Assembly (NCBI GenBank): GCA_002421665.1
Contig: DISH01000005.1
Span: 14,092-78,091 of the forward strand
Source: Candidatus Omnitrophica bacterium UBA6215
GTDB lineage: Bacteria; Omnitrophota; Gorgyraeia; Pluralincolimonadales; Pluralincolimonadaceae
Direction: 5' to 3'
Length of the DNA stretch: 64,000 nucleotides
Position numbers and translations under genes: made by a program. Shown piece after piece: positions 42,501-57,778 of this stretch (the stretch's first letter is position 1; each line of letters opens with the position of its first letter). The notes under the pieces were generated by a model. The model had not been told where the DNA came from. It did not search any database and saw only the letters and a program-made list of their open reading frames with translations.

Positions 42501-43085
42501 ATGGCAGGAAGGATATTTTTTACCGTAGCGGTCACGGTACTCTGTTCATTGACTTATGCTCAGGAGCTGGTCTGGGAAGGTTTTGAAGGGAAGAACAACT
42601 GGGTTATGGTCGAATGGCGCAATTCGGGCAGGGGGAAGATGGAGATATCAGAAGAGCAGTCTACCGAAGGCGCCAAATCCCTGAAGGTTATAATGAACAG
42701 GGAAAGAAAGACCTACAGGGATAAGGTGGGGGTATCGAGGGAAGGATACCTAAACCTGGCCAGGGCGGATAAGGTGATAATGGACGTTTACTGCAAATCT
42801 GACGACGGCCTTGCCGTATCGATAGCTTTTGATATAGGCGATAAGGGAAATTACTATGAATCCGTCAAAAGGCCGTTAAAAAGGGGTTGGAACAAGGATA
42901 TCAGTTTTGACCTGGCGGCTGATTATTTCAAATGTGAGGGCAGCGACTGGAAATACGACAAGTCTATACCCGACAGGAGCAACATAACCAAGATGCATAT
43001 AATAATATACAGGCCTTCGAATATCATTTTTGAGGAGACCGTGTATATAGATAATATAAGGATAGACCAGAAGAAGCCCGTATAG
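42501..43085 (+). CDS. small secreted protein consisting of one uncharacterised CBM-like beta-sandwich module (copy 1)
   Basis: Signal peptide. Motifs VWEGFEGKNNW, KSLK, RGWNKDISFDL, FKCEGSDWK, YIDNIRID are shared with six other copies in the window. Confidence 0.7.
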   Translation: MAGRIFFTVAVTVLCSLTYAQELVWEGFEGKNNWVMVEWRNSGRGKMEISEEQSTEGAKSLKVIMNRERKTYRDKVGVSREGYLNLARADKVIMDVYCKSDDGLAVSIAFDIGDKGNYYESVKRPLKRGWNKDISFDLAADYFKCEGSDWKYDKSIPDRSNITKMHIIIYRPSNIIFEETVYIDNIRIDQKKPV

Positions 43086-43120
43086 GGGACGCATTTGCTC
43101 CGCGAACAAGGAGAAATTGG

Positions 43121-43681
43121 ATGAAAAGAGCGGTTTTTTTCGCTATATTGACGGCAGTAATGCTGTTCATGTATGTCTCTGTACATGCAGAGGTATTTGA
43201 CAGTTTCGAGGGGGTCAATGATTGGGGCTTCGAGAGCTGGGATAACGTCGGCGGGGTCGCGCTGTCGATAAGCGCGGAGAAGGCTTCCGACGGCAAGCAG
43301 TCGCTAAAGGCAGTCGCCAAAGAAGAACAAGAGGACTGGAAGAACAGGTTTGTGTTATCCAGGGATGCCTCGCTGGACCTTTCCGGTTCGGATATGTATA
43401 TGGACATCTATACTGATGCTTCTTCCGGGATGTCGGTTGCCGTAGCATTCGATACCGGCGGGGAATATTATGAGTCCGAAGGCAAGATCCTCAACCAGGG
43501 TTGGAATAGGGACATAAAGTTCGACCTCTCTGCAAAAGATTTCAAGTGCAAGGCAAGCGACTGGAAAAATTCGGTTCCGTTAGCAGACAGGAGCGATATA
43601 AGCAAGGTCTTCGTACTTGTGCAGCATCCGAAGAAAATGAAGGGCGCTACGGTATTCATCGATAATATAAGGTTTAAGTGA
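43121..43681 (+). CDS. small secreted protein consisting of one uncharacterised CBM-like module (copy 2)
   Basis: Signal peptide. VFDSFEGVNDW, QSLK, NQGWNRDIKFDL, FKCKASDWK, FIDNIRFK. Confidence 0.7.
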   Translation: MKRAVFFAILTAVMLFMYVSVHAEVFDSFEGVNDWGFESWDNVGGVALSISAEKASDGKQSLKAVAKEEQEDWKNRFVLSRDASLDLSGSDMYMDIYTDASSGMSVAVAFDTGGEYYESEGKILNQGWNRDIKFDLSAKDFKCKASDWKNSVPLADRSDISKVFVLVQHPKKMKGATVFIDNIRFK

Positions 43682-43704
43682 GATACTAGGACCGGTCGGT
43701 CTCA

Positions 43705-46119
43705 ATGATCAAGAGCATAGCGTTAACCATGTCTGTATTTGTTTTGGCGGCCTTTATATCCCCTGCAGAGGCGGGCATAGTCTCAATAACGGCGGACCGG
43801 GAAGAAGTGCCGGAATTCGGGAAATTGGAAATTACGGTCGGGCTTGACATTGTTTTTTCCAATCCGTTCGACCCGGAAGAAGTGGATCTGTCGGCGGTAT
43901 TTACGGGTCCTGCGGGCAGGTCATATATGGTTCCGGGTTTCCTGTATTCGGCGCAACAGGATTCATCCATGAGTTATATTAACCCCGTCTGGAAGATCAG
44001 GTTCTCTCCATGCTGTAAGGGAACTTGGAAGTATGAGGTGCGCGTGAGGACGAAAGACGGCGCGGAAAATTCCGAGGGGAAAAACTTTGAATGTGTACCG
44101 TCAAAAGCGAAGGGATTCATAAGGGTGAGCGCAGCGGATCCCCGCTATTTCGAATTTACCAACGGGGATTTCTATTATCCTGTCGGCGAGAACATATGCT
44201 GGGCATCTCTGCCCGGTTTCAGGAAATATTTCGCCGGAATGCAGAAGGCCGGGTGTAATTGGACGAGGGTATGGATGTCGAACTGGGAATCGGGATTGGA
44301 GTGGACCAAGGGCTCCGGATACAGGGGACTTGGCAGGTATAATCTCGAGAAAGCAGATAAATTGGATAAGATAATAGAGCTTGCGCAGGAACACGGCCTG
44401 TACGTGCAGCTTGTGATCAACCACCACGGCCAGTTAAGTACCAGGGTAAACCCGCAATGGGATGATAACCCCTATAATGCCGGGAACGGCGGCCCATGCA
44501 AAGAACCCAAGGATTTTTTTACCGATCCCTTGGCAAAAAAACATTTCAAGAACAGGATGCGCTATATCGTGGCACGCTGGGGATACAGCCCTAATCTAAT
44601 GGCATGGGAATTATGGAATGAATTGACATTCATCGATGACCTTGACCTCGAAAGGGACGCAGCTTGGCACAAGGAAATGGCCTCGTATATCAAGGAGACC
44701 GACCCTTACAAACACTTGATAACCACGAGTTACGCCGGGACCTTTCACGATTACGGTTTTAACGAAAAAGTCTGGGAGATACCCGAGATAGATTATACGC
44801 AATTCCATATGTATACGCAGGATGTCGTCTCGGCTATAATAGGCGCCTACAGGCTTATGAGCCGGTTCGACAAACCGTATTTCATGGCGGAGATAGGTAC
44901 GGATTCGACCGAGGGCGTAGACAAGAAAGACCTCGACGGCGCTTACCTCCATGCGGCTATCTGGTCGGAATATATGCTTTCCTGCGCAGGCAACGCGATG
45001 CCTTGGTGGTGGGACAGCTACGTGCATCCGAGGGGTATGTATTACCATTGGGCGGCGCTTACGGCTTTTAACCGGGGGACCGACAGGAGGGGCAAGGGAT
45101 ATTGCACGTCGACATCACGCGTGCTTGCAGAGATCGAAGGGTTGAAGACGTCCGTGTCCGCAGTAGGCATGATGAACGACAGGGAAGCTTTTATATGGGT
45201 CTTCGACCCGAAATGGACCAGGTTTGAACCGGGCCATCCGGAGCCTCCGGAGATAAAGGATGCATCGGTGAGGATAAACGGTATGGCCGGAGGAAGATAT
45301 CTGATAGAATTCTGGGATACGTTGTCCGGGGCAGTAACGGGAAAAGTGGAAAAGGGTTCCGATGAGAACGGGCTGGACATAACCATCCCTCCTTTCAGAA
45401 GAGATATCGCGGTTAAAGTAATACCCGTTGAGGTCAAGTCTTCCGGCCGCAGGAAGGCAGCCCTGGCAGATACTGTTCCCGCACCTATCGGTTTTTCCAG
45501 GCAGTCTGTAACGGCCGGGAGGGCGAGACAGCATATAAAAGTAGATGGCGACCTTTCGGAATGGTATCTGTCCGGTTTTGCCGGCGACCGGATAGCCTCG
45601 GCGGATAAAGGTGCTGCCAGGTTCTACCTTTTATATGACAAAGACAACCTTTATCTGGCCGCTGAGGTCGAGGATGAGTCCGTTATAGGCAACCAGAGCG
45701 GCGTTGACATTTGGCGTGATGACGCGATAGAGTTCTGGATAGACGCCCGGGGGGACGCGGATACATTCAATAACATGCCTTTCAACCCGGGTTGCTACCA
45801 GGTGAATATCGCGCCTATTACAAAAGACGGGACCGCGGGTGTCTATGTTTACAGGAATATCAATACGAGGTCTCTCGCGGAAGCGGTCAAAGCCGCCTCA
45901 AAAGTATCGTCCGACCCTAAGAAACCGGGCTATACCATAGAAGCGGCTATACCGATACGCTCAGTTGACGGACTTGAATTGAAGGACGGCAAGACCCTCG
46001 GAGTGAATTTTTCCGTTACCGACAGGGACACGGAAAAAGGACAATGGCGTCACGTCATATGGTCGGGGCAACGGGAGGATGACGCCACGCAATGGGGCAT
46101 ATTGAAGGTAAAAAACTAA
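43705..46119 (+). CDS. secreted glycoside hydrolase: N-terminal beta-sandwich (DUF5060-like) + GH-A clan TIM barrel (DUF4038/GH5-like) + C-terminal CBM9-like domain
   Basis: Signal peptide. WELWNELT (putative NE acid/base), W-rich TIM-barrel motifs. C-terminal ~190 aa DGDLSEWY...RFYLLYDKDNLYLAAEVEDESV...WRDDAIEFWID resembles the CBM9/DOMON-like fold. Paralog of the central region of 53394..56267. Confidence 0.65.
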   Translation: MIKSIALTMSVFVLAAFISPAEAGIVSITADREEVPEFGKLEITVGLDIVFSNPFDPEEVDLSAVFTGPAGRSYMVPGFLYSAQQDSSMSYINPVWKIRFSPCCKGTWKYEVRVRTKDGAENSEGKNFECVPSKAKGFIRVSAADPRYFEFTNGDFYYPVGENICWASLPGFRKYFAGMQKAGCNWTRVWMSNWESGLEWTKGSGYRGLGRYNLEKADKLDKIIELAQEHGLYVQLVINHHGQLSTRVNPQWDDNPYNAGNGGPCKEPKDFFTDPLAKKHFKNRMRYIVARWGYSPNLMAWELWNELTFIDDLDLERDAAWHKEMASYIKETDPYKHLITTSYAGTFHDYGFNEKVWEIPEIDYTQFHMYTQDVVSAIIGAYRLMSRFDKPYFMAEIGTDSTEGVDKKDLDGAYLHAAIWSEYMLSCAGNAMPWWWDSYVHPRGMYYHWAALTAFNRGTDRRGKGYCTSTSRVLAEIEGLKTSVSAVGMMNDREAFIWVFDPKWTRFEPGHPEPPEIKDASVRINGMAGGRYLIEFWDTLSGAVTGKVEKGSDENGLDITIPPFRRDIAVKVIPVEVKSSGRRKAALADTVPAPIGFSRQSVTAGRARQHIKVDGDLSEWYLSGFAGDRIASADKGAARFYLLYDKDNLYLAAEVEDESVIGNQSGVDIWRDDAIEFWIDARGDADTFNNMPFNPGCYQVNIAPITKDGTAGVYVYRNINTRSLAEAVKAASKVSSDPKKPGYTIEAAIPIRSVDGLELKDGKTLGVNFSVTDRDTEKGQWRHVIWSGQREDDATQWGILKVKN

Positions 46120-46136
46120 AAAGACAAAAGGAAAAA

Positions 46137-48182
46137 ATGAAGAAAAAAGCGGAAATAAAGGAAGGCATATTCTATCTCGGAGGAAAACCAACGTTCCTTG
46201 TAAGCGCGGATTACCCTTATTATCGCGATGATGCCGCGAACTGGAACGACAGGTTAAAGAAGATAAAAGATGCCGGGATCGATGCCGTTACGTTCTATAC
46301 TCCCTGGAGGCACCATGTTCTAAGGGACGGAGAAGGTTTCATCGAGGATTTCAACGGCAAGACGCGCCCGAACCGCAACGTTGAACTGTTCCTTAAATTA
46401 TGCCGTGACAACGGCCTTTGGGCTATAGTAAAACCCGGGCCTTTTATACATGCAGAGTTGACGTTCGGAGGTCTTCCGGATTGGGCTGCCGCCGAAAAAA
46501 GCTCCGGCCTGGAGACCTTCCCGAACAACAAGGGCGAGCCTATGCTCGACCCGTTCCGTAAACCAGACACATACGGCAGGCCCATGCCCGCCCCTCTTTG
46601 TAAAAAATTCAGGTCGATGACCAGGCAGTGGTACAAGACCGTATATGACAAAGTGATAAAAGGCAATATATATCCGGAAGGCAATATAATAGCGGTTCAG
46701 GTCTGCAACGAGGGGCTCTATTCCAACGGGCCTGCCTCGATAACCGATTATGATTATTCGGACTCATCGCTTGAACTATTCAGGAAATTCACCGGACGAA
46801 AGGACCTGAAGGTAGCAAGGAGGCTCTACGGGATAAAGAGGCTTTCCGACCTCAAGGACTACCTTGATTGGGCCAGATGGCAGTCGGAGTATATGAGGTT
46901 AATATATACGGAATTCTCCGCGGTCGTCCACGGCAAACTACCTATCGTAATAAATATCAATCCTCCGTGCGAGGGCAGGAAGCTTGACCATTGGCTGACC
47001 AGGGTAATACCGGAGAACTGGCCTACGATAAACTACGGTTTTACGAACTGGCTGCGGCCCGTTTCCGAGGACCGTTCATCCTTTGATCGTTACAGCCTTT
47101 TATCCAAGCGCAAAAGAGGCATAAATTTCGAGGAGAACTGGGGATTTTCCAAGATATACGATTACCATTTCCAGTATCCCGTGATCTGCGTATTCGAGAC
47201 CATGCTGGCGATAGCAAACGGAGCGACCGGCTTCAATGTCTATACCGCAGTCAATACCGCCTCATGGGATGATTCCATAGACAGCCAGCATGAAAGACCG
47301 TATCCGGATTCTTCTCCCATAAAAGAAGACGGTTCGCTGACCAAAAAGTACGAAGTATTAAGCCTTATATCGCATTTCTTTGAGACCGAGGGCCCCGCCT
47401 TCCTTAAATGTTCCGCAGATACGCCTATAGCGTGGGGCTTTTATCCGCCCTATGCGTTCCTGGCGGCGTGGGACATACCTAAGGAAGACTGGGACAGGCT
47501 TCACATGGACCCGGTAAGGTGCGGTTATGAAGGGTTGGACAAGTTCCAAAGGGTACTTAGGGACCGGAACATCGATTTCCATATAGTCAATCTTGAGACC
47601 GCCAGCCTAAAGGAATTGAAGCAGAATAAATTCATAGTCCTTAACGGCGGTTTCTTCATGGACAGGAAGACCCAACAGAAACTTGCCTCTTTTGCGGCGG
47701 GAGGCGGAAAGGTTATATTCATAGGAGAGACGCCCCGCGCGGATGAAAATTTCAATGACTGCAGGATATCACAGAAAAACAGTTTCTGTTTGCTTAAGAT
47801 AGAGGATATAGGCGGAATATTGGCGCGTTATCATTCAAAGCTTAAGGTTAACGACCCCGAGACCCAGGTATGGGCTTATGACGATCCCGCTTCCGATACG
47901 CAGTTTTTCTTTATCCTTAACCTGTCGATAAACGCGGGTGCCCGATACTTCGATTATGACGGCGTAAATGGGAGTGTTGTAATGCCGGATAAATCCGCGG
48001 CTGTGATCAAGGTCAAGAAGGGCAAGCTTGATTCACTGTTTATAAAAGGCATCAACGAGATGAACAATACGTCAGTGGTCCCGGCGGCCTCGTTCGGCAG
48101 GGATGTTTTCAGGTCGGAGAAGGCATGTGACGTCCTGGCTTACAGGAAGGCGAATAAATGGCAGGCAAAAATCGTATTATAA
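46137..48182 (+). CDS. GH35/GH42-like beta-galactosidase family protein (cytoplasmic)
   Basis: GH35 N-terminal pattern: YPYYR...W.DRLKKIKDAGIDAVTFY.PW..H, then AIVKPGPFIHAELTFGGLPDW and VQVCNEGLY (compare VQVENEYG, acid/base Glu). No signal peptide. Start set to ATG 46137 after the upstream stop. Confidence 0.65.
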   Translation: MKKKAEIKEGIFYLGGKPTFLVSADYPYYRDDAANWNDRLKKIKDAGIDAVTFYTPWRHHVLRDGEGFIEDFNGKTRPNRNVELFLKLCRDNGLWAIVKPGPFIHAELTFGGLPDWAAAEKSSGLETFPNNKGEPMLDPFRKPDTYGRPMPAPLCKKFRSMTRQWYKTVYDKVIKGNIYPEGNIIAVQVCNEGLYSNGPASITDYDYSDSSLELFRKFTGRKDLKVARRLYGIKRLSDLKDYLDWARWQSEYMRLIYTEFSAVVHGKLPIVININPPCEGRKLDHWLTRVIPENWPTINYGFTNWLRPVSEDRSSFDRYSLLSKRKRGINFEENWGFSKIYDYHFQYPVICVFETMLAIANGATGFNVYTAVNTASWDDSIDSQHERPYPDSSPIKEDGSLTKKYEVLSLISHFFETEGPAFLKCSADTPIAWGFYPPYAFLAAWDIPKEDWDRLHMDPVRCGYEGLDKFQRVLRDRNIDFHIVNLETASLKELKQNKFIVLNGGFFMDRKTQQKLASFAAGGGKVIFIGETPRADENFNDCRISQKNSFCLLKIEDIGGILARYHSKLKVNDPETQVWAYDDPASDTQFFFILNLSINAGARYFDYDGVNGSVVMPDKSAAVIKVKKGKLDSLFIKGINEMNNTSVVPAASFGRDVFRSEKACDVLAYRKANKWQAKIVL

Positions 48183-49693
48183 AAGCGGTCCTTATCGCAG
48201 CGATCCCGGCCCTATTATCACAGGCCCGGGCCGATGAAGGGAGACTCGTTTACCTTAACCCTTTTACGGTAGCGGCTTCGTCTTTTGATGACAGTGAGTG
48301 GGCGCCGGAACCCGAGCCTTCGGCCGTATCCGACGGCGATTTCAACACTCGCTGGTCATCCGTCATGGGCAAGGATAACGAATGGATATACCTTGACTTC
48401 GGTAAGCAGAAGACCGTTACGGAAGTTATTATATACTGGGAACGTGCTTATGCTACGGAGTTCGAGATACAGTCATCCGATGACGCAATGAACTGGAAGA
48501 CCATCGCCCGGGTGAAAAACGGAAAGGGCGAGAAAGAGACGGTTTCAGTCCCCAAGACGACTGCGCAATACCTCAGGCTGGTCGGCTTAAAGAGGGTCAA
48601 CCCCGACTGGGGGTTCTCGGTCTGGGAGTTCGAGGCGTACGGTCCGCCAGAGCTCAATCCCCAGGACTTTCCGGTCGAGGAGGTGTTCCCCGGCAGGAGG
48701 CCGCGAGAAGAGGTCAAGCTTGTTATGGAGGAACCGGTGAGGTCACCCGGGGCCATCGGGCCCGGGGAGTTCCAAAAAGGCGTCAATTATTCGTCTTATA
48801 ATGAGGTGGACCTTGCCCTGCAGGAATCCGATGAAATACTGGCTTATCTCAAGACGATGAACGTGACGGATGTATGCATTATCGTGACGTGGTACCAGGA
48901 CAGCCTGGAGTCGATGTCCATGTCGCCTGATGCCGTCGGAGGAAGGACCCCGCGCGACGAAGCGCTCATCCATGCTATAAATAAGGCGCATTCCCTGGGT
49001 TTCAAAGTTATGTTAAAGCCTCATATAGACATACAATCCGGCGAGTTTCGCGGGGATATCCCCGGCGAGGAAGAATGGTTCGGGAATTACGGAGATTTCA
49101 TATTGAAATATGCAGGCATCGCGCAAAAATTCAATGTCGAACTCTTCTGTATCGGGACCGAGCTTTCCGGCACTCCTACAAAATGGGAACCAAACTGGAG
49201 GAAGATCATAAAGGATATACGCGCCGTATACTCCGGGCCGATAACCTACGCCGCGAACTGGGACGAATACAAATATGTCCCTTTCTGGAACGACCTGGAT
49301 TATATGGGCATAGACGCCTATTTCCCCCTTACCAACAAGAATGAGCCTTCGAAAGAAGAACTCCTTGTTGCCTGGAAACGGGAGGCAGATAATATAGAAA
49401 ATTTTTTGAAGAAGAAAGGCATAAACAAACCGGTCATCTTTACCGAAGCCGGTTATGCCAGTTCGGACGGCGCCAACAAGAGGCCGTGGGAAGTCACATC
49501 TAAGACCGAAGACCAGAGGGAGCAAGCGGACTGTCTGGATGCGCTTATGACGGTCATGACAAATCGGGTGTGGTTTTCGGGACTTTACGTGTGGAATGTA
49601 TTCCCCCAGGATATCTCCAGCCCGCTTGGTTTCCCGGTTAAGGGGAAATTGGCTGAAAAGATACTTGCCGACTGGTATGCGAAGCTGAAGTAA
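48158..49693 (+). CDS. secreted F5/8 type C (discoidin, CBM32-like) domain + GH-A clan TIM-barrel glycoside hydrolase
   Basis: Signal peptide. Discoidin signature FNTRWSS...EWIYLDFG...VWEFEAYG. C-terminal TIM barrel with FTEAGY (nucleophile-like TE) and WNDLDYMGIDAYFP. Paralog of 50372..51553. Confidence 0.65.
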   Translation: MAGKNRIIKAVLIAAIPALLSQARADEGRLVYLNPFTVAASSFDDSEWAPEPEPSAVSDGDFNTRWSSVMGKDNEWIYLDFGKQKTVTEVIIYWERAYATEFEIQSSDDAMNWKTIARVKNGKGEKETVSVPKTTAQYLRLVGLKRVNPDWGFSVWEFEAYGPPELNPQDFPVEEVFPGRRPREEVKLVMEEPVRSPGAIGPGEFQKGVNYSSYNEVDLALQESDEILAYLKTMNVTDVCIIVTWYQDSLESMSMSPDAVGGRTPRDEALIHAINKAHSLGFKVMLKPHIDIQSGEFRGDIPGEEEWFGNYGDFILKYAGIAQKFNVELFCIGTELSGTPTKWEPNWRKIIKDIRAVYSGPITYAANWDEYKYVPFWNDLDYMGIDAYFPLTNKNEPSKEELLVAWKREADNIENFLKKKGINKPVIFTEAGYASSDGANKRPWEVTSKTEDQREQADCLDALMTVMTNRVWFSGLYVWNVFPQDISSPLGFPVKGKLAEKILADWYAKLK

Positions 49694-49718
49694 AGGTACG
49701 GGAAAGGAGGCAGTAACG

Positions 49719-50303
49719 ATGGGCAGGTTAATGGCAGCAGCATTGCTGGTCGCGTCACTTCTTGCGTTGAGCAGTGTCCCTCACGCGGCTGAAACGGTGC
49801 TCTTCGGGTTCGAGGATGACACCGGGGGTTGGCGCGTCCCTGATTGGGCGCTTGAAAAAGAAGACCATGTAGCGAGGGACCTCTCCCTCTCTACCGATTG
49901 GGCTTCCGAAGGGAAGAAGTCCATGAAGGTCACTTCCGAGTTCCTCGGGGGCAAATGGTCGGGCGCGTATGTCGAGATAGAAGAATATTTCGACTGGTCG
50001 CCTTACAGCAAGCTTTTGGTCGATGTGTACATACCAAAAGATGCCCCGGCCGGGCTTAAAGGTAAGATAATCCTTACCGTAGGTGATGAGTGGAAATGGA
50101 CCGAGATGAGCAAGACCGTGCCGCTTACCCCGGGCCAAGTCACCACGATAACGGCCGATATAGCCCCGGGAAGCAAGGATTGGAAGAACACGATCGTCGA
50201 TGATAACTTCAGGAAAGATGTCCGGAAATTCGGTGTAAGGGCGGAAAACAACAGGACCGAGTGGAAGGGCGCCTATTATGTCGACAACATAAGGTTGGAA
50301 TAA
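49719..50303 (+). CDS. small secreted protein consisting of one uncharacterised CBM-like module (copy 3)
   Basis: Signal peptide. LFGFEDDTGGW, KSMK, KDWKN, YYVDNIRLE. Confidence 0.65.
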   Translation: MGRLMAAALLVASLLALSSVPHAAETVLFGFEDDTGGWRVPDWALEKEDHVARDLSLSTDWASEGKKSMKVTSEFLGGKWSGAYVEIEEYFDWSPYSKLLVDVYIPKDAPAGLKGKIILTVGDEWKWTEMSKTVPLTPGQVTTITADIAPGSKDWKNTIVDDNFRKDVRKFGVRAENNRTEWKGAYYVDNIRLE

Positions 50304-50313
50304 TGGCTGTTAC

Positions 50314-50351
50314 GCGGGGCCGCAAAAACCGGCCCCGCGCGACACCTTTTA
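50314..50351 (+). terminator. rho-independent terminator
   Basis: Perfect 9-bp GC stem GCGGGGCCG-CAAAAAC-CGGCCCCGC (50314-50338) followed by TTTTAT. Confidence 0.65.
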
Positions 50352-50371
50352 TAAGTCTTAAGGAGAGCAAG

Positions 50372-51553
50372 ATGTTTTTCAGGAGAAAGTTATTAATATT
50401 CATTCTGGTAGCAGCCGCGTTCCTGGCCGGCTACCTGGCCAGCGTAATGGCCCCGCGCGTGTCCTCGCAGAAGCCGGTCGAGACCAAGTTTGCTTTTGGC
50501 GCGGGAAAGAAGGTGTCCGGAGCTCCTCAGGAAGCAGCCGGTCCCTCAAGGGAGCAGGCCCCTGCGGCCGCGGCCCAGAAAAAAGTAGACAGGCCCCCTT
50601 TCCCTCAATTCCAGAAAGGGATGACCTATGTGACATGGGACAGGTCCGCGTACGGCAAAGGTTTTTCAGACATGTCCCTGGAAAAACTCGCCTCGATAGG
50701 CTGTGGTTATGTTGCCATAATAACCACCTGGTACCAGGGTGATTATAATATTACCCAGATAAAGCGGGGAGGCAGCACGCCTACCGATGAAAGCCTGATA
50801 CATGCAATAGAGTCGGCGCATAAAGCGGGCTTAAAGGTCATGCTTAAGCCGCACCTTGACCTTGTAAAAGGCGGCTGTTGGAGGGGGGAGATACAATTTG
50901 GCAACGATACCGATTGGGAAACATGGTTTGCCAGCTACGGGGATTTCATAACTCACTACGCTAAACTTGCGGAAGATAACGGTGTAGAGATATTCTGTAT
51001 CGGAGTGGAGCTTACGGTGCCCGCGGTAGAGAAGCCGGATATGTGGGTAACGAAAGTCATAGAGCCCGTGAGGAAAGTTTTTTCAGGCCCGATAACTTAT
51101 GCAGCGAACTGGAACGAGGAATACCAGAACGTTGAATTCTGGGATAAGCTCGATTATGCAGGTTTGGACGCCTATTTTCCTCTTTCTGATAAAGAAGACC
51201 CGTCGCTCGATGACTTGAGGCAGGGATGGAAACCCCATATGGAAGCTATCGAAACCTGGCAGAAGTTCATAAATAAGCCGGTCCTGCTTACCGAGGTAGG
51301 TTATAAGAGTTCAACGGGCACGGCCAGGACCCCGTGGGAGCACCAGCTCGGCAGGGAAGTGGATCTGAAACTGCAAAGCGATTGCTACACGGCTATGTTG
51401 GAAGCTTTTTGGGATAAACCCTGGTTTTATGGGATGTACTGGTGGTATTGGGGGACGAATGATAGAATGGGAGGCAGCACCGACCGCGGGTTCAATGTGC
51501 AGAACAAACCTGCGCAGGCCGTGGTCAGGGATTGGTACGCCAAAGGGCGCTAA
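50372..51553 (+). CDS. membrane-anchored/secreted GH-A clan TIM-barrel glycoside hydrolase (paralog of the 48158 catalytic domain)
   Basis: AGGAGA RBS before ATG 50372. N-terminal signal anchor. LLTEVGY, WDKLDYAGLDAYFP and YAANWNEEY motifs shared with the 48158 protein. The track ORF start 50261 is rejected. Confidence 0.65.
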   Translation: MFFRRKLLIFILVAAAFLAGYLASVMAPRVSSQKPVETKFAFGAGKKVSGAPQEAAGPSREQAPAAAAQKKVDRPPFPQFQKGMTYVTWDRSAYGKGFSDMSLEKLASIGCGYVAIITTWYQGDYNITQIKRGGSTPTDESLIHAIESAHKAGLKVMLKPHLDLVKGGCWRGEIQFGNDTDWETWFASYGDFITHYAKLAEDNGVEIFCIGVELTVPAVEKPDMWVTKVIEPVRKVFSGPITYAANWNEEYQNVEFWDKLDYAGLDAYFPLSDKEDPSLDDLRQGWKPHMEAIETWQKFINKPVLLTEVGYKSSTGTARTPWEHQLGREVDLKLQSDCYTAMLEAFWDKPWFYGMYWWYWGTNDRMGGSTDRGFNVQNKPAQAVVRDWYAKGR

Positions 51554-51568
51554 AAACAGGAGGATAAT

Positions 51569-52498
51569 ATGAGGTTTGTCTGCAAGAAATACGAAAAGAA
51601 CCCGATAATAACAAAAGAAGATATGCCTTACCCGTGCGAATGCGTATATAACGCGGGTGCGGCAAAGTACAAGAATAAATATATACTCTTGCTCAGGGTT
51701 CTTCTGCTTAACGGTAACTGCGTATTCGGGCTCGCCGAGAGCGATGACGGTTTCGATTTCAGGATCCACCCGAAACCGGTTATGGTCCCGGCGACTACAG
51801 GGCCTTTCGCCAGGTATGAGGAGAAGGGCATCGAAGACCCGCGTATCACCAAGATCGGGGACACCTATTATATCTTCTACAGCTGCTATTCAGGGCTCGG
51901 GATGAGGATAGGGCTCGCCAAGACCAAGGACTTCAGGAAATTCGACCGTATCGCCATGACGACCACCATAGATTATCGCAATTCGGTCCTGTTCCCGGAG
52001 AAGATCAACGGCAAATATTGCCGTTTCGAGCGCCCGAACGTGGGACGCCAGGGGATATGGGTCTCTTACTCTCCGGACCTGATACATTGGGGCGAGCAGG
52101 AGCATATAATGGCCCCTTACGGCAACCATATTTGGGAAGACCATAAGATCGGCGCCGGCGCTCCGCCTATCAAGACCAAGAAGGGCTGGCTGAGTATCTA
52201 CCACGGCGTTACCTGGACGATGGACGGAATGACTTACAGGCTTGGAGCAGCTATGCATGACCTGAAGAACCCGGCAAAGATCCTCGGGATAGCCGACCAA
52301 TTCATACTCAGCCCCGATGAGATCTTTGAAAGGGTGGGGTATGTCCATAACGTCGTTTTTACCTGCGGCGCAATACCCGAACCTGACGGGACGGTCAAGA
52401 TATATTACGGCGGTGCCGATACGGTAATGTGCGTTGCCGTTGCAAAAATAGAAGACCTTATAGATATAGCGCTTAAAGGCAAGAGGAAACCGCTATAA
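51569..52498 (+). CDS. GH130-family glycoside phosphorylase (beta-1,4-mannoside phosphorylase-like)
   Basis: 309 aa, no signal peptide. NPIITKEDMP...VYNAGAAKYKNKYILLLRV N-terminus and VVFTCGAIPEPDGTVKIYYGGADTVMCVAVAKIEDL C-terminus are characteristic of the five-bladed beta-propeller GH130 family. Confidence 0.75.
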   Translation: MRFVCKKYEKNPIITKEDMPYPCECVYNAGAAKYKNKYILLLRVLLLNGNCVFGLAESDDGFDFRIHPKPVMVPATTGPFARYEEKGIEDPRITKIGDTYYIFYSCYSGLGMRIGLAKTKDFRKFDRIAMTTTIDYRNSVLFPEKINGKYCRFERPNVGRQGIWVSYSPDLIHWGEQEHIMAPYGNHIWEDHKIGAGAPPIKTKKGWLSIYHGVTWTMDGMTYRLGAAMHDLKNPAKILGIADQFILSPDEIFERVGYVHNVVFTCGAIPEPDGTVKIYYGGADTVMCVAVAKIEDLIDIALKGKRKPL

Positions 52499-53397
52499 AA
52501 TATTATCTCGGGATTGACATAGGTGGCACGAACATCCGCCTGGGTGTCGTAGACGGCCGCGGCAAGGTACTGGCAAGATATCGGATGCCTACCTTGAGAA
52601 GGCAGGGAAGGGACAGGGTCATATCGAGACTGTTCGACGCCATAAAGGATATCGCGGCGTCGTATGACATAAAAGCGATAGGGATAGGTTGCCCCGGACC
52701 GCTTGACAGTAAAAAGGGGATAGTGCTCTCTCCTCCTAATCTGCCCGGCTGGCGCAACGTGCGGATAAAAGAGATGGTCGGCAAGAGGTTCCGCGTCCCG
52801 GCGGCGGTCGAGAACGATGCCAATTGCGCGGGGTTGGGGGAATCCGTTGCCGGCGCAGGGAAGCGCGCCTCGAGCATGGTCTTGCTTACTCTCGGCACTG
52901 GTATAGGCAGCGCAATAGTCCTGGAAGGGAGATTATGGACGGGTAAGGGAGGCTTTGCTTCCGAGTTGGGCCACGTATCGGTGGATATTAACGGTCCGAG
53001 ATGCGAATGCGGCAACAGGGGCTGCATAGAATTATATGCTTCGGCAACAGGAGTCGTCCGCCGCATGAAAAAGGCATCCTGGAGCAAGGCTGCCTTGACG
53101 GCTGAGGATGTATTTCGCAATGCCGGCAGAGGAGACAAGAAAGCGCGCAAGATAGTCGATGAGACGGCCTATTACCTTGGGTGCGCGCTTGCCAATATAG
53201 TTAACGCGCTGGACCCCGAGCTTATAGTGCTTGCCGGAGGAATGACAAGGGCCGGGCGCGGATTTGTGCGCAAAGCCGAACAAATAATGAGGAAGAGGGC
53301 TTTGAGGGAATCATCACGAGCAGTCAAAGTAACTGTCTCTAAACTTGGAGATGATGCCGGTTTGATCGGCGCCGCTTGGAGGGCGAAGGAGCTATGA
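52495..53397 (+). CDS. ROK-family sugar kinase with non-canonical start codon (or 5' disruption)
   Basis: The conserved ROK N-terminus YYLGIDIGGTNIRLGVVDGRGKVL (52501-52572) lies upstream of the first in-frame ATG (52585). The frame opens at 52477 with no ATG/GTG/TTG. In-frame ATA at 52495 sits 7 nt after an AGAGGA SD. ROK motifs ENDANCAGLGE and CECGNRGC (Zn) are present. The 5' boundary is uncertain. Confidence 0.6.
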   Translation: MKYYLGIDIGGTNIRLGVVDGRGKVLARYRMPTLRRQGRDRVISRLFDAIKDIAASYDIKAIGIGCPGPLDSKKGIVLSPPNLPGWRNVRIKEMVGKRFRVPAAVENDANCAGLGESVAGAGKRASSMVLLTLGTGIGSAIVLEGRLWTGKGGFASELGHVSVDINGPRCECGNRGCIELYASATGVVRRMKKASWSKAALTAEDVFRNAGRGDKKARKIVDETAYYLGCALANIVNALDPELIVLAGGMTRAGRGFVRKAEQIMRKRALRESSRAVKVTVSKLGDDAGLIGAAWRAKEL

Positions 53398-56267
53398 AAA
53401 GAATACTGTTAACCGTGTTCACTGGTGTTGTAGCATCGGTATTTTTGCAGGTCTTTGCGTTCTCTGCCGCGACGGAAGCGGTCCCGGCGGCAGGAGGGAC
53501 CGAAACCATCGTCTGGGACAGTCTTGAGTCGAAACACCTCTGGAGCATAGCCCAGTGGGGCGACGCCGCGAAACTGGCCGTAGCCCCTGACAATAAGACC
53601 GAGGGCGAAAAATGTTTCAAGGTGTCGTTCGGGCCGGAAGGCAAGCAGAACCCGCCGAAGGGCGTAGTCCTTGAGCGCGAGCAGTCGGCAATAGACCTCG
53701 ATACGTCCAAAAAACTTACCGTCGATGTATATAATGACGGCCCGCCTCTCGAGATGGCGCTTGTACTGTATACCGATGAATTCATAGAAAGCTCCACGGC
53801 GACCATAAAGAAAGGGTTGAACAAGGACATAACCTTCGACCTCCATGCCAAGGACTTCAAGAGTCCCACGAGTAAATGGCAGTATAATTATTCTCCTCGT
53901 CCCGGAACGATCGCGTGGCGCATAATGTTCATAATGTATACGGAAGACCCGGACATCAAAAGCACGGTATGTTTCGATAATATACGCCTTGAAAGGACGC
54001 CGAGGATAACCAGCGAACAGAAGATAATTGCCTTGGCCGATTACAAAGAGCCAAGGATAACCGCGGTAAAGACCGGCAATGAGAAAGTCGAGCAGTACGA
54101 GAAACTGGAGATCACCGTGGATTTCGAGGGAACCTACCAGTACCCCTATAATCCCGATAATATAGACCTGACGGCTTACTTTACGGCCCCTGACGGGAAA
54201 AAATATATCATGCCGGGCTTCCTTTATTCGGGGAAGGTGGACGGGGTCAACATCTCCGACGCGGTTTGGAAGGTGAGGTTCACGCCGGTGATAGCCGGGG
54301 AATGGGAATACTACGTAGAGGTCAGGAACCCGAAAGGCAAGGCGAAGTCGGAGAAATTTTCATTCGAATGCTTTGCCCCCGCATCGCCCAAGAAGGGTTT
54401 CGCGCGTATAAGCAGGAGAGACCCCTTATTTTTTGAGTTCGAGAACGGGGAGTATTATTATCCGATAGGCCAGAACGTGGCGTGGGCGCCGTCGGTGCAG
54501 ATGTTCGACCATTATTTCTCAAAGATGCACGAGAATATGTATAACTGGACGCGCGTCTGGATGTCAAGCTGGCAATGCGCGATAGAATGGCTGGATGTCG
54601 GGGATTACCACGGGCTTAACAACTATAACCTGAAGAACGCGAAATTGCTCGATGATATAACCGACCTGGCGAAGAAATACGACCTGTATTTCCAGCTTGT
54701 CCTTAACCAGCACGGGCAGTTGAGCACTAAGGTCGATCCCGAATGGCTCAATAACCCGTATAACAAGAAAAACGGCGGTCCATGCGAGAAGCCGGCTGAT
54801 TTCCTTACTGATCCCGAGGCGAAGAGGTTGTATAAGATGCGCATGCGTTATATAGTGGCCCGTTGGGGGTATTCTACCAACATACTCGCTTGGGAGCCGT
54901 GGAACGAGCTGACCCTCATGGACAACTATGACTCGAACCTGGATATCCCCTGGCAGAAAGAGATGGGCTGTTACCTGAATTCCATCGATCCTTACAGGCA
55001 CATGATAACGACCAGCTATTTCGGGAACTTCCCTAAGGAGATATGGAAACTGCCGGAGATAAGCTATGGGCAGATCCATATGTATACCCCGGAGATAGTT
55101 ACCACCCTGGACGGTCTTTACATGATAATGAAGGATTACAAGAAGGCCTATTTCGTCGGGGAATACGGCGGAAGCAACCTCAGCGGAATAGACATCCAGG
55201 ATCCCGATGCGACCGTCCACCACAACGGCATATGGGCTGCCTACATGACCGTGTCCTCCGGCGATGCCATGCCCTGGCAATGGGACGATTATATCGACCC
55301 GAGGAACCTGTATTTCCACTGGCGCGCACTTTCCAAGTTCAACGAGGGCGAGGACAGGCGCGGACAGAAATACCAGTACAGCCGCGGCACCATGGAGTTC
55401 GATGACGGGACCATATTGATGGCACAGGGCATAATGAACAACAATAAGGCCCTGGTATGGGTCTATGACCTTTATGCTACCAAGTTCAATCAGGGGGAGT
55501 TCAAGCCGCTTGACGTCAAGGGCGCCGTCCTGACCGTGGCGGGAATGGACAAAGGCGACTACAAGATAGAGTTCTGGGATACCTACAAGGGTATCGTGAC
55601 AGGCACGGCCGATACAAAATGCGACGGCAGGAAACTCGATATCCCGCTGCCTGAGATAAAGAAGGATATTGCGGTCAAGATCACGGCCTGCAATGAAAAT
55701 GCGCGCCCAAGGTCGGGCAAGATATACATTGAATCGAAATATGCAGAGAAAGACGTCCCTGAAGAACCGCGCAAACTTTGGGAAGGTTTTGAGGTACAGG
55801 GGGACTGGGATTACGCCGGCTGGGGCGATAAAGTGAAAGTATCTCTTGCCGGTAATAAGGTAACGGAAGGGAAAAAAGCGATCAAGGTTGTCTTCGACAA
55901 AGCGGGCAGGAGGACCGACGGGAAAGGTATCTGTGTCCAGAATACCAAGCTGAACCTTGACCTGTCGAAAGAGAAGAAGATGGTATTTGATGTCTATCTC
56001 GATGCGCCTAACTCCATAGAGGTATCGGTCGTACTTAACAGCAAAGGTTTCTGCGAAAGCGTGCGCAGGATCATAGTCCCCGGCTGGAACAGGAATATCA
56101 CTTTTGACCTTAAGGCAAGGACGTTCAAGAAAGAATCTACCAAGTGGCAACACAAAGGAGAGATAGACAGGGAAGAGCCGATGAAGGAAGTGATGTTCAT
56201 GTTCTACCCGTGGGATGTGGAATCGGGGAGCTTCTATATAGACAACGTAGGGTTCCTGAATAATTGA
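53394..56267 (+). CDS. secreted multidomain glycoside hydrolase: CBM-like module (copy 4) + DUF5060-like beta-sandwich + GH-A TIM barrel + CBM-like module (copy 5)
   Basis: ATG 53394 overlaps the ROK stop (ATGA) and follows a GAAGGAG SD. Signal peptide. N-module 53500-54000 (TIVWDSLESKHLW...GLNKDITFDL...CFDNIRLE). Central region is paralogous to 43705..46119 (WEPWNELT). C-module 55776-56264 (LWEGFEVQGDW...PGWNRNITFDL...YIDNVGFL). Confidence 0.7.
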   Translation: MKRILLTVFTGVVASVFLQVFAFSAATEAVPAAGGTETIVWDSLESKHLWSIAQWGDAAKLAVAPDNKTEGEKCFKVSFGPEGKQNPPKGVVLEREQSAIDLDTSKKLTVDVYNDGPPLEMALVLYTDEFIESSTATIKKGLNKDITFDLHAKDFKSPTSKWQYNYSPRPGTIAWRIMFIMYTEDPDIKSTVCFDNIRLERTPRITSEQKIIALADYKEPRITAVKTGNEKVEQYEKLEITVDFEGTYQYPYNPDNIDLTAYFTAPDGKKYIMPGFLYSGKVDGVNISDAVWKVRFTPVIAGEWEYYVEVRNPKGKAKSEKFSFECFAPASPKKGFARISRRDPLFFEFENGEYYYPIGQNVAWAPSVQMFDHYFSKMHENMYNWTRVWMSSWQCAIEWLDVGDYHGLNNYNLKNAKLLDDITDLAKKYDLYFQLVLNQHGQLSTKVDPEWLNNPYNKKNGGPCEKPADFLTDPEAKRLYKMRMRYIVARWGYSTNILAWEPWNELTLMDNYDSNLDIPWQKEMGCYLNSIDPYRHMITTSYFGNFPKEIWKLPEISYGQIHMYTPEIVTTLDGLYMIMKDYKKAYFVGEYGGSNLSGIDIQDPDATVHHNGIWAAYMTVSSGDAMPWQWDDYIDPRNLYFHWRALSKFNEGEDRRGQKYQYSRGTMEFDDGTILMAQGIMNNNKALVWVYDLYATKFNQGEFKPLDVKGAVLTVAGMDKGDYKIEFWDTYKGIVTGTADTKCDGRKLDIPLPEIKKDIAVKITACNENARPRSGKIYIESKYAEKDVPEEPRKLWEGFEVQGDWDYAGWGDKVKVSLAGNKVTEGKKAIKVVFDKAGRRTDGKGICVQNTKLNLDLSKEKKMVFDVYLDAPNSIEVSVVLNSKGFCESVRRIIVPGWNRNITFDLKARTFKKESTKWQHKGEIDREEPMKEVMFMFYPWDVESGSFYIDNVGFLNN

Positions 56268-56321
56268 AGACCCTTCGTAGAATATAGCAAATATTTCCTA
56301 TAAAATAACAATAATATTATC

Positions 56322-56350
56322 TTGACAAAGGAATCTTAAAATGGTATTAT
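56322..56350 (+). promoter_or_regulatory. sigma70-type promoter TTGACA-17-TATTAT for the second PEP-CTERM gene pair
   Basis: Consensus hexamers in a 210-bp very AT-rich intergenic region. The ~130-nt leader carries two copies of the palindrome AGTATACT (56373-56380, 56440-56447). Confidence 0.5.
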
Positions 56351-56480
56351 TTCCCCGAAATAGTTATACCAGAGTATACTTGCCTTGTTATCTAATACTT
56401 AGTTAAACTTTATCCAAACATCTTTTGTTTTTATAACATAGTATACTCGGTTATACTAATCAGTGAAAGGGGGCGGTATA

Positions 56481-57110
56481 ATGGTAAAGAATTTTCTGGT
56501 AATAGCGGTTACAGTGATAGCGTCGCTGTCAATTTCCGTTGCGGCGCACGCTACTGTCCGGTTCGATTTTGCAGATTCAACCCAGGGTTGGGCTGCCGAG
56601 GATTGGGGTTACGGCCTTCCTGCTTTAGCGCAGGTAGGTTGGTCGAAGGACCCTGATACGGGGAGCCTCGAATCGAACAGTTCTTCCATGACATATACGC
56701 GCGCTGACAGCCAGAACTGGACAAAAGTGTACCTGAAAGGCGACTTCGCTTCCTCGCAAGACCTCACGTCGGAAGCTGTGTATACCATGGATCTCTATAT
56801 ACCCGATAACATTTATTTTGGTAAAGCGAAACTCGGGGTCAGGACGGGCAACTCATGGGACCTTTTTGAATCGGATGAGATCAGTTTGGAGCAGGGCTGG
56901 AACGGCCTGTCTTGGAACATGGGCGGTGTTTCGAATATTGCGGACGCCAGGCAGCTGGGGGTCGAGATATCGGGATGGTTCCCGGTCAGCGACGACGCGA
57001 AGTGGAATATCGATAACGTTGCCACTAATTCCGTGCCCGAGCCGGCAAGCATGTTTCTGCTGGGTGCGGGTCTCGCAGGTATCTTTACAATCAAAAAAGG
57101 AAGGAGGTGA
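56481..57110 (+). CDS. PEP-CTERM sorting-signal protein carrying the locus-specific CBM-like module (copy 6)
   Basis: Signal peptide MVKNFLVIAVTVIASLSISVAAHA. RFDFADSTQGW, EQGWNGLSWN, WNIDNV echo the module motifs. C-terminus SVPEPASMFLLGAGLAGIFTIKKGRR. Confidence 0.8.
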   Translation: MVKNFLVIAVTVIASLSISVAAHATVRFDFADSTQGWAAEDWGYGLPALAQVGWSKDPDTGSLESNSSSMTYTRADSQNWTKVYLKGDFASSQDLTSEAVYTMDLYIPDNIYFGKAKLGVRTGNSWDLFESDEISLEQGWNGLSWNMGGVSNIADARQLGVEISGWFPVSDDAKWNIDNVATNSVPEPASMFLLGAGLAGIFTIKKGRR

Positions 57111-57778
57111 AGACAATCATGACGAAGTATTTTATAGCTGTCACGGCTGTTTTGCTTATCGGACAGGCAGCATTCGGCGCGACTCTGTATGATTTTGAAA
57201 GCGGCACCCAGGGTTGGACATACCAGGATTATACGGACAGTCAGGCCATAACGGCTGCCGCGCAGTCCGGCACGCAGGCTAAGTCCGGTTCCTACTCGTT
57301 GATGGGGACCACCCACCTGGTGCCGGGTGACGTCAACTACAGCAAAGGCGAACTTCTTGTGACAAGGACGCAGGCCGACAAACTGGACCTGAACGGTCTT
57401 ACGACATCGGTATCCGTCTACGGGCCCACGGGAGCGGCAGGGACCAACCCCTCGTCTCCCAACGGCTGGCAGATGTTCTTTAAGGACGTCAACTACAAGG
57501 CATGGTACGGTCCGTGGACCAACATGGTCGAGAACAGCTGGACTACCCTCTCTTCAACAATAGGGACCACGACCCCGGCTTTTGTCGATTCGGGATTCGA
57601 CCCGACGCAGATCGTTACACTCGGTGTCAAGATCGGCACCGGCGGTTCTTCAACCGGTACCTATGACGGCGCTGTCTATGTCGATGATTACACGGTAGTC
57701 CCGGAACCGGCCAGCATGCTCCTTCTCGGCAGCGGTTTGATAGGCATACTTGGTTTTGCGAGAAAGAAGAGAGCGTAA
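57107..57778 (+). CDS. PEP-CTERM sorting-signal protein carrying a divergent copy of the CBM-like module (copy 7)
   Basis: Signal peptide. LYDFESGTQGW, PNGWQMFFKDV, VYVDDYTV. C-terminus VVPEPASMLLLGSGLIGILGFARKKRA. Overlaps the previous gene by 4 nt. Confidence 0.8.
   Translation: MKTIMTKYFIAVTAVLLIGQAAFGATLYDFESGTQGWTYQDYTDSQAITAAAQSGTQAKSGSYSLMGTTHLVPGDVNYSKGELLVTRTQADKLDLNGLTTSVSVYGPTGAAGTNPSSPNGWQMFFKDVNYKAWYGPWTNMVENSWTTLSSTIGTTTPAFVDSGFDPTQIVTLGVKIGTGGSSTGTYDGAVYVDDYTVVPEPASMLLLGSGLIGILGFARKKRA

Follow-up and report, generated by a model that had tools for sequence, protein, structure and literature searches.

Seven copies of a probable CBM59-lineage module in a putative beta-mannan utilisation operon of an uncultured Omnitrophota bacterium

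CBM59 is a sparsely characterised family of carbohydrate-binding modules (CBMs). Its characterised members are C-terminal appendages of GH5_8, GH26 or GH10 enzymes from Bacillota (PMC8952944, PMC3985142), and the CBM of PDB 1WKY belongs to this family (PMC8952944). The family is reported to be promiscuous in its binding, with mannan, xylan and Avicel as ligands, and its founding member, ManF-X10, binds mannan, xylan and cellulose (PMC3985142). Here we describe seven related modules within a 64,000-nucleotide stretch of DNA (the window) from an uncultured Candidatus Omnitrophota bacterium. We consider it probable that all seven belong to one CBM59/PF21253 jelly-roll lineage of the galactose-binding-domain-like clan, deployed across an Omnitrophota beta-mannan operon. 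On their sequence characters, c6 and c7 appear to be classical-type CBM59 modules and c3 an intermediate, while c1, c2, c4 and c5 would form a divergent clade marked by a GWN[KR]D strand and an insertion.

On the basis of Pfam assignments and gene context, the module-bearing stretch reads as a beta-mannan-utilisation operon (Table 1). The modules sit in a cluster of mannan-directed enzymes (two GH113, one GH130 and two that are DUF5060/GH5-like), which also encodes a ROK kinase and an ABC solute-binding protein. The two DUF5060/GH5-like enzymes are paralogues, with 46% identity over the core of the 957-aa protein (aa 205–763). The 804-aa enzyme matches PDB 9gmj with an E-value of 2.5e-86, its matches to GH5 mannanases are weak, and an orthologous glycoside hydrolase in a relative carries the label PF26410 (GH5_mannosidase). 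Literature searches on DUF5060, 9GMJ, GH5_mannosidase and the enzyme's PDB entries returned nothing relevant on its substrate, so the mannan assignment of these enzymes rests on Pfam labels and the weak similarity to GH5 mannanases. In a relative at ~44% identity the entire operon is syntenic, every module included, which indicates that the module genes are real and under selection. Promoter-like sites in the region, two of which are listed in Table 1, are in all no more numerous than in a shuffled control.

Table 1. Coordinates of the module-bearing operon and of the sorting genes, numbered by position in the window
Feature	Coordinates	Strand	Evidence and remarks
Sigma-70-like promoter consensus TTGACA-16-TATAAT, 12/12	41289..41316	+	Upstream of regulator; putative main-operon start; consensus match only
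AraR-type regulator: GntR HTH + LacI-type sugar-binding domain	41379..42482	+	Pfam
c1, standalone secreted group-A CBM59-like module, 194 aa	42501..43085	+	
c2, standalone secreted group-A module, 186 aa	43121..43681	+	In tandem with its paralogue c1 (37% identity)
DUF5060 + GH5-like catalytic domain + C-terminal CBM9, 804 aa	43705..46119	+	Pfam; partner enzyme of standalone modules
GH35-like / GLMA-type glycosidase	46092..48182	+	Start codon uncertain; overlaps preceding gene
F5/8 type C domain + GH113 (beta-mannanase family)	48158..49693	+	GH113 180.8 bits
c3, standalone secreted PF21253/CBM59 module, 194 aa	49719..50303	+	PF21253 39.0 bits (gathering score 27)
GH113 enzyme	50366..51553	+	217 bits; start uncertain, GTG 50261 or ATG 50366
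GH130, beta-1,4-mannooligosaccharide phosphorylase family	51569..52498	+	189 bits
ROK-family sugar kinase	52585..53397	+	Pfam
Secreted DUF5060 + GH5-like enzyme, 957 aa	53394..56267	+	Group-A module at each end
c4, N-terminal group-A module of 957-aa enzyme, aa ~36–201	53499..53996 (approx.)	+	A3 profile domain E 5e-61
c5, C-terminal group-A module of 957-aa enzyme, aa ~794–957	55773..56264 (approx.)	+	A3 profile domain E 1.5e-57
Second sigma-70-like consensus, 11/12, extended TG	56322..56350	+	Upstream of PEP-CTERM pair; consensus match only
c6: signal peptide + classical-type CBM59/PF21253 passenger + PEP-CTERM tag	56481..57110	+	PF21253 30.4 bits; PF07589 29.4 bits
c7: signal peptide + classical-type CBM59-like passenger + PEP-CTERM tag	57107..57778	+	
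Exosortase (5648–6481) + EpsI (6463–7113)	5648..7113	+	NCBIfam

All seven of the related segments originally predicted are present, in the three contexts proposed for them: free secreted proteins (c1–c3), both ends of a glycoside hydrolase (c4, c5) and PEP-CTERM proteins (c6, c7). The modules, each of ~165 aa, are homologous and fall into three tiers rather than one uniform set. Group A comprises c1, c2, c4 and c5, which are 30–37% identical, a similarity well above chance (BLASTP E-values between 1e-11 and 2e-40 with the database size set to 1e8). Copy c3 occupies a middle position, between group A and the classical CBM59 type, and c6 and c7 match each other with a BLASTP E-value of 8e-6. A profile of group A and its homologues (A3), run against all six-frame ORFs of the window, matches the whole length of c3 (E 2e-17) as well as c6 (E 4e-9), with no other match besides group A itself. 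Two further PEP-CTERM proteins, at 7257–7943 and 7940–8581, were considered as eighth and ninth copies, both being matched by a c3/c6/c7 profile, yet they were rejected: once signal peptide and sorting tag are removed, all their module scores are negative. They are therefore non-members, and the count of seven holds.

The claim that one motif set recurs seven times was overstated: all five motifs are found in group A, whereas c3 has part of the set and c6 and c7 the terminal motifs. The strict forms of GWN[KR][DN]IxFDL and FKxxxS[DK]W[KQ] are confined to the four group-A copies, with deviations in c4 (GLN) and c5 (TKWQ). In c3, FE..GW, KSMK, SKDWK and YVDNIR are present and GWN is absent. The PEP-CTERM copies, correctly expected to be more divergent, keep only generic motifs, F-x-x-x-TQGW on the N-terminal side and [IV]-D-[ND] at the end, with GWN additionally in c6, and in the alignment the FK..SDW segment is wholly absent from both. 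In group A this segment (FK...S-D/K-W) is a conserved insertion of ~15 residues placed between the last strands; in c3 it is shortened, to SKDWK.

The original prediction regarded the module as uncharacterised and as not assignable by eye to a known CBM family. However, PF21253 (“Mannanase, galactose-binding domain-like”, Mann_GBD_bact; gathering score 27 bits), which served as our proxy for CBM59, matches c3 and c6 above that score and c7 just below it, and the remaining copies are linked to it indirectly. The model is in effect one of CBM59, since the CBM59 module of 1WKY scores 200 bits against it from end to end (positions 1–143 of 143). The score of c3 is 39.0 bits (E 1.2e-9, model positions 1–143 of 143) and that of c6 30.4 bits, both above the gathering score; c7 reaches 22.2 bits (E 1.8e-4), below that score, with full model coverage, and its orthologues, 69–80% identical, carry precomputed PF21253 annotation. 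The four group-A copies give no match to PF21253 even at E<=1. NCBIfam models matched nothing in any of the modules other than the PEP-CTERM tag, and a literature search on PF21253 found nothing relevant. Among relatives, individual matches to PF21253 are found in 9 of 26 group-A homologues (E<0.01) and in 21 of 54 members of the broader family, the highest score among multi-copy representatives being 77.6 bits.

Profile–profile comparison with hhalign links the c6/c7 family to canonical CBM59 with a probability of 98.6% (E 5.5e-16), and group A to canonical CBM59 with 75.3% (E 2.5e-5), the insertion appearing as a 15-column gap. The canonical profile is shallow (four homologues, Neff ~1.6), which probably lowers the latter value. 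As this direct comparison yields only 75%, we regard group A as a putative rather than a formal member of CBM59. A combined profile, including c3, c6, c7 and distant representatives, matches residues 310–463 of 1wky in a search of the whole PDB (E 7.2e-6), whereas the group-A-only profiles A1 and A3 have no match among PDB sequences at E<=10; the 1wky match, coming only from the broader profile, is thus not independent evidence for group A alone. Collapse into a characterised CBM family, the outcome named as fatal to novelty, has largely come about via PF21253/CBM59. What survives of the novelty claim is group A as a divergent, insertion-bearing branch of the CBM59 lineage that lacks database annotation.

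The predicted fold agrees with the beta-sandwich, CBM-type architecture proposed earlier: the models show a jelly-roll, and their top structural matches are all CBMs. AlphaFold models of c1 and c7 (pLDDT 87 and 86), made independently, give the same best PDB match, the CBM59 of 1wky; for the group-A model this match leads the next family by 2 Z units, at 18% identity in the structural alignment. The module is thus predicted to be a beta-jelly-roll most similar to solved CBM59.

The tiers raise the question of whether the seven segments are one family at all. Copies c6 and c7 lack the strict motifs and c3 lacks some of them, the direct BLASTP E-value between c3 and c6 is 0.44, and group A has no direct BLASTP match to c6 or c7, as would be expected if the motif resemblance were coincidental. 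We regard this as highly improbable. The profile matches join the tiers, as does hhalign, in which group A aligns with the c6/c7 family over 147 columns (95.3%, E 2.2e-8); one Pfam family matches c3, c6 and c7; and the c1 and c7 predictions converge on the same structure. A different doubt concerns the function of the free copies c1–c3, which might be accessory or regulatory proteins instead of glycan binders, for example a secreted sensor component coupled to the neighbouring AraR-type regulator, or else a chaperone or an assembly factor built on this jelly-roll fold in the manner of CIA30. In relatives, a c1-type module gene always lies directly 3' of the regulator gene, and in one genome (L001) the regulator and module genes form an isolated, overlapping pair that lacks any glycoside hydrolase in its neighbourhood, an arrangement that a pure enzyme-helper role leaves unexplained. 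Nevertheless, we find an accessory role unlikely: c1–c3 have signal peptides while the regulator is cytoplasmic, c1 and c2 are 30–31% identical to the enzyme-attached modules, relatives show free and fused copies replacing one another, free and enzyme-borne copies share their conserved residues, and the best structural matches are, again, CBMs.

The more serious alternative, and one that we hold possible although not favoured, is that group A, with ~10^3 related clusters, is a separate and as yet unnumbered CBM family, a sister of CBM59 in the same clan, with only c3, c6 and c7 being CBM59 proper. On this reading the FK...SDW insertion and GWN would set a ligand specificity of their own, and the family would be dedicated to DUF5060/9gmj-type enzymes. 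No Pfam or NCBIfam model is reached by any of the four group-A copies, and their modest hhalign link and low structural identity to 1wky fit such a separation. The insertion, which 1wky, c6 and c7 lack, occurs in 171 of 180 domains, and its Trp is conserved in 144 of the 180. Group A is also partnered, by fusion or adjacency, with a DUF5060/GH5-like enzyme (L001 being the case with no glycoside hydrolase nearby), and the partnership is strict across two phyla: a Bacillota MAG retains a DUF5060-GH homologue (31% identity, E 3e-66) together with a free module. Yet close group-A homologues, 39–46% identical to c1, pass PF21253, and the CBM59 of 1wky is still the best structural match. Moreover, c3 has a partial insertion and exceeds the PF21253 threshold, which suggests a gradual transition between group A and the known family and not a clean separation. 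More speculative still would be a scheme in which group A is an unnumbered sister of CBM59 whose insertion forms a new or extended binding platform, serving as the dedicated targeting module of DUF5060/9gmj-type enzymes, fused or in trans, and providing Omnitrophota, together with exosortase-anchored CBM59s, with a Sus-independent set of secreted and surface proteins that capture beta-mannan.

Returning to the single CBM59 lineage that we prefer, homology, fold, gene context, conserved synteny and the fusion and fission of modules are the observations from which we infer ligand, binding site and cellular location. The gene context (two GH113, GH130, ROK kinase) points to beta-mannan binding. 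Each module would accommodate inner segments of a chain of the beta-1,4-mannan type (mannan, glucomannan or galactomannan), using a cleft in one side of the sandwich like its closest structural relatives, CBM59, CBM11, CBM27 and CBM22; from conservation, the surface residues W34, W39, W130, W150 and E120 are putative cleft residues. Attached in cis, c4 and c5 would keep their DUF5060/GH5-like enzyme in contact with its substrate. The Sec-exported free modules c1, c2 and c3 may do likewise in trans, without a covalent link, or may retain polysaccharide near the cell. Relatives have two or three free modules, the third copy in one of them (L010) being fused to the N-terminus of the glycoside hydrolase, and in a set of 1,205 representative clusters it is common for one to five copies to be part of a fused architecture.

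The surface-tagged context was also predicted correctly, and the module occurs free, enzyme-appended and tagged. The PEP-CTERM tags of c6 and c7 score 29.4 and 29.9 bits with PF07589 (cut-off 20.7) and 23.3 and 24.4 bits with TIGR02595 (cut-off 16). Their C-termini, VPEPAS...KKGRR and RKKRA, were read in the sequence, as were the N-terminal signal peptides, and the AF2 model of c7 has a C-terminal helix at 202–222. The exosortase (TIGR02602, 154.6 bits, cut-off 105.55) and EpsI (TIGR02914, 88.9 bits, cut-off 42.8) would be expected to be the machinery for these tags. After export, c6 and c7 would be processed by this exosortase and displayed at the surface as glycan-capture proteins.

The value of these results lies mainly in annotation, as the fold, the family and the logic of CBMs in polysaccharide operons are already established and no new category is added. 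Some 1,000 clusters at 50% identity, made up of “hypothetical proteins” and unannotated termini of DUF5060-glycosidases, become readable as CBM59-related putative glycan-binding modules, and the locus becomes readable as a beta-mannan utilisation operon in Omnitrophota, an uncultured phylum with poorly known carbohydrate physiology. The fusion and fission of free and enzyme-borne copies provides a natural system for asking whether CBMs act in trans, and the PEP-CTERM-tagged copies are a testable case of exosortase-dependent display of glycan binders.

The closest known system is the CBM59 of 1WKY, the C-terminal module of the alkaline GH5_8 mannanase of Bacillus sp. JAMB-602. The modules described here have in common with it the N-terminal F-E-x-x-T/x-x-G-W signature, the C-terminal Y-[IV]-D-N-[IV] signature and the association with beta-mannan-degrading enzymes. 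Group A differs in having at most 18% identity to 1wky and in its insertion and GWN[KR]D strand, both absent from 1wky. Unlike the characterised CBM59s, the modules are free, at both ends of a DUF5060/GH5-like enzyme or in PEP-CTERM proteins, and they are found in Omnitrophota. CBM11 (PF03425; Clostridium thermocellum Lic26A-Cel5E, PDB 1V0A), with beta-1,3-1,4/beta-1,4-glucan as its ligand, is the second structural match, below CBM59; PF03425 matches none of the seven copies and two of 54 relatives, and its setting is a cellulosomal glucanase in place of the mannan setting here. CBM27 (Thermotoga maritima Man5, 1OF3; Caldicellulosiruptor ManA, 1PMH/1PMJ) is a clearly weaker structural match than CBM59, with no Pfam match and a marginal sequence relationship, the similarity to solved CBM27 modules not being significant. 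The SusE/F-like surface glycan-binding proteins (SGBPs) of Bacteroidota polysaccharide-utilisation loci differ in phylum and module family and in belonging with a SusC/SusD pair, which this locus lacks, and anchoring here would putatively be by PEP-CTERM/exosortase, or none, instead of lipidation; weak matches to PF18329 (SGBP_B_XBD) occur in c3 and one c1 homologue. The likeness to these and other CBM-only secreted proteins would be one of functional analogy only, as non-catalytic glycan binders, putatively exposed on the cell surface or close to it, that are encoded in a polysaccharide-utilisation operon.

The original prediction placed seven copies of a CBM-like module (c1–c7) in the window, and all seven ORFs or segments were found on the plus strand, where they had been predicted (see table). 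In each of the six proteins concerned, a putative signal peptide can be read from the sequence as a hydrophobic N-terminal segment followed by an AxA-type site. The C-terminal tags of c6 and c7 match PF07589 with 29–30 bits (cut-off 20.7), and TIGR02595 also matches.

Positions of the modules, sorting genes and sigma-70-type sites of the window, and of a related Bacillota cluster
Feature	Position	Strand	Length	Remarks
c1	42501-43085	+	194 aa	
c2	43121-43681	+	186 aa	
c3	49719-50303	+	194 aa	
c4	53394-56267, aa ~36-201	+		N-terminal in 957-aa protein
c5	53394-56267, aa ~794-957	+		C-terminal in 957-aa protein
c6	56481-57110	+		PEP-CTERM tag at C-terminal end
c7	57107-57778	+		PEP-CTERM tag at C-terminal end
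exosortase	5648-6481			same window as c6/c7
EpsI	6463-7113			same window as c6/c7
sigma-70-type consensus, perfect 12/12	41289-41316			upstream of regulator
sigma-70-type consensus, 11/12 with TG extension	56322-56350			upstream of c6
cluster in Bacillota MAG (L011)	JAHDNZ010000062.1, 4513-9926			LacI regulator, 719-aa protein, free group-A module, ABC sugar-binding protein

In BLASTP of all copies against each other (E-values scaled to 1e8 database residues), c1, c2, c4 and c5 form a tight group (group A; 30–37% identity, E 1e-11 to 2e-40), while the links between c3 and c2 (E 5e-4) and between c6 and c7 (E 8e-6) are weaker. A profile of group A and 22 database homologues retrieves full-length c3 (E 2e-17) and also c6 (E 4e-9) from the 566 six-frame ORFs of the window, and nothing further among them. 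Profile-profile comparison joins group A to the c6/c7 family (probability 95.3%, E 2.2e-8, 147 columns). Taken together, these three lines of evidence make the seven modules homologous, in three tiers. Taken strictly, the five motifs said to recur in every copy co-occur in group A only and are incomplete elsewhere: c3 retains four motif positions, with SKDWK replacing FK...SDWK and GWN absent, and in c6 and c7 the set is reduced to the N-terminal F-x-x-x-TQGW and the terminal [IV]-D-[ND].

Another two PEP-CTERM proteins of the window (7257-7943 and 7940-8581) were considered as extra copies and rejected: one profile matched them, but only in the signal peptide and the sorting tag, and the passengers have negative scores. 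The count of seven stands. These passengers start with NLLxNxxFE and are not CBM59-like, one having a weak CBM_4_9 match; the region 5648-8581 encodes a second set of putative surface proteins with jelly-roll-type passengers.

AlphaFold2 models were made of c1 (pLDDT 87.3, pTM 0.82) and c7 (pLDDT 86.1), the two extremes of the set, and both are predicted to be 11-strand beta-sandwiches. Below the top structural match, PDB 1WKY, rank CBM11 (1v0a), CBM44/30, CBM27 (1of3, 1pmj), CBM28 and CBM22, with Foldseek concordant. These are type-B, chain-binding CBMs. The beta-sandwich models and their CBM matches bear out the original reading of the modules as CBMs.

The suggestion that the modules belong to no known CBM family is wrong for c3, c6 and c7, which match PF21253 (“Mannanase, galactose-binding domain-like”) with 39.0, 30.4 and 22.2 bits against a gathering score of 27. 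The C-terminal module of 1WKY, recovered from the HMMER alignment, matches PF21253 end to end with 200 bits, and the CBM of this Bacillus sp. JAMB-602 GH5_8 mannanase is CBM59 (PMC8952944); thus PF21253 amounts to the Pfam model of CAZy CBM59. A small canonical CBM59 profile also aligns with the c6/c7 family (probability 98.6%, E 5.5e-16). No group-A copy on its own reaches PF21253 or any NCBIfam model. PF21253 is, however, carried by 9 of 26 database homologues of group A, such homologues being 39–46% identical, and multi-copy representatives retrieved by the group-A profile reach as much as 77.6 bits on it. As c3 both exceeds the Pfam threshold and matches the group-A profile, it bridges the two. 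A combined profile searched against the whole PDB matches 1wky residues 310–463 (E 7.2e-6), and direct profile-profile comparison of group A with CBM59 gives a probability of 75% (E 2.5e-5). Judged from these sequence comparisons, group A is tied to CBM59/PF21253 through its homologues, c3, the PDB match and the profile comparison. What survives of the novelty claim is that group A is a divergent, unannotated branch with a conserved insertion.

The window is chromosomal (ThrRS, PheT, RNase Y, DXS, GltX, an RND pump with outer-membrane factor), and its nearest relatives are Candidatus Omnitrophota MAGs. From 41379 to 57778 every gene lies on the plus strand, with short gaps, in the order AraR-type regulator, c1, c2, DUF5060 + GH5-like + CBM9, GH35-like glycosidase, F5/8C + GH113, c3, GH113, GH130, ROK kinase, c4 + DUF5060 + GH5-like + c5, c6, c7; an ABC sugar-binding protein lies farther downstream. 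GH113 and GH130 are families of beta-mannan and manno-oligosaccharide metabolism. The two sigma-70-type sites, which are no more than suggestive, hint at two transcription units, one of enzymes and free modules and the other of the PEP-CTERM pair. The GH35-like, GLMA-type glycosidase (46092-48182) overlaps the preceding gene end by 28 nt, has an uncertain start codon and shows no evident signal peptide. Mechanical listing gives a minus-strand ORF of 529 aa (54564-56153) antisense within the 957-aa enzyme gene, most likely a by-product of coding-strand codon bias. Directly 3' of c7, 57830-60208 encodes a 792-aa protein in which a T2SS GspK-like segment and a Laminin_G_3 (ConA-like lectin) domain are recognised; it is perhaps a surface protein of pseudopilin type, connected with the same locus.

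The two DUF5060/GH5-like enzymes (43705-46119 and 53394-56267) are paralogues, 46% identical over the core, with swapped CBM complements: the former has a C-terminal CBM9, the latter group-A modules at both ends. Among solved structures they are closest to 9gmj/9gpc, a “DUF5060 domain-containing protein” (E 1e-83 to 1e-86), on which we found no publication in the literature; GH5 endo-mannanases match weakly, and an orthologue is precomputed as PF26410 GH5_mannosidase.

In a relative with a c1 orthologue of 44% identity, the whole gene order is conserved, down to the two tandem free modules, the c3-type module and a 965-aa enzyme; these are thus real genes under selection. Among related loci retrieved with c1, tandem free modules number two in the window and L003, and three in the Omnitrophota loci L004, L005, L007, L008 and L009. 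At L010 (2658-5678) the third module forms the N-terminal part of a 1007-aa fusion protein with the DUF5060 enzyme (compare the database representative P0048), and this variation is a natural fusion/fission series. In the Bacillota cluster, the 719-aa protein has no Pfam match and is homologous to the DUF5060 enzyme of the window (31% identity, E 3e-66), and the free module (197 aa) has every group-A motif, so the enzyme-module pairing crosses phylum boundaries. The fusion/fission series and the adjacency across phyla indicate that this family of DUF5060 enzymes has its cognate non-catalytic partners in the group-A modules, whether in cis or in trans. The AraR-type regulator (GntR HTH + LacI-type sugar-binding domain) always lies directly 5' of a c1-type free module in the window (41379-43085), L001 (8925-10606) and L002. 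L001, on a 1.99-Mb contig, is an exception for which the enzyme-helper model does not account: its regulator and module genes overlap each other and stand by themselves, and within 10 kb of them there is no glycoside hydrolase.

Homology and fold mark the modules as putative non-catalytic binders of glycan chains, and context makes a beta-1,4-mannan-type polymer their most likely ligand. In such a scheme, c4 and c5 would tether the 957-aa enzyme to its substrate, the exported free proteins c1–c3 would bind the polymer too, and exosortase processing of c6 and c7 would lead to their display on the cell surface. Conservation across the clade yields candidate cleft residues W34, W39, E56/G57, K62, D95/Y97, E120/S121, G129-W130-N131, F136, F143/K144, W150 and D184/N185 (c1 numbering); the terminal E and D-N may instead be structural, as is generally known of the clan. 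The locus is a tidy experimental system for testing whether CBMs work in trans, and the group-A branch of CBM59/PF21253 has some annotation value. Searched exhaustively with an HMM, 1.84 billion representative proteins yielded 1,205 clusters at E<=1e-3 (649 at E<=1e-10, 48 at E<=1e-30), with 1–5 copies per protein, so the motif set marks a large unannotated clade and not a peculiarity of the window.

Compared with 1WKY, c6 and c7, group A has an extra ~15 residues between the GWN[KR]D-I-x-F-D-L strand and the penultimate strand, and the conserved F143, K144 and W150 sit in this insertion. Among 180 near-full-length domains from the best 150 representatives, 171 have the insertion and 144 keep the Trp. 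Canonical CBM59 also has two of the five motifs, F-E...W at the N-terminal end and Y-[IV]-D-N-[IV] at the C-terminal end; these two are hallmarks at the family level and nothing new.
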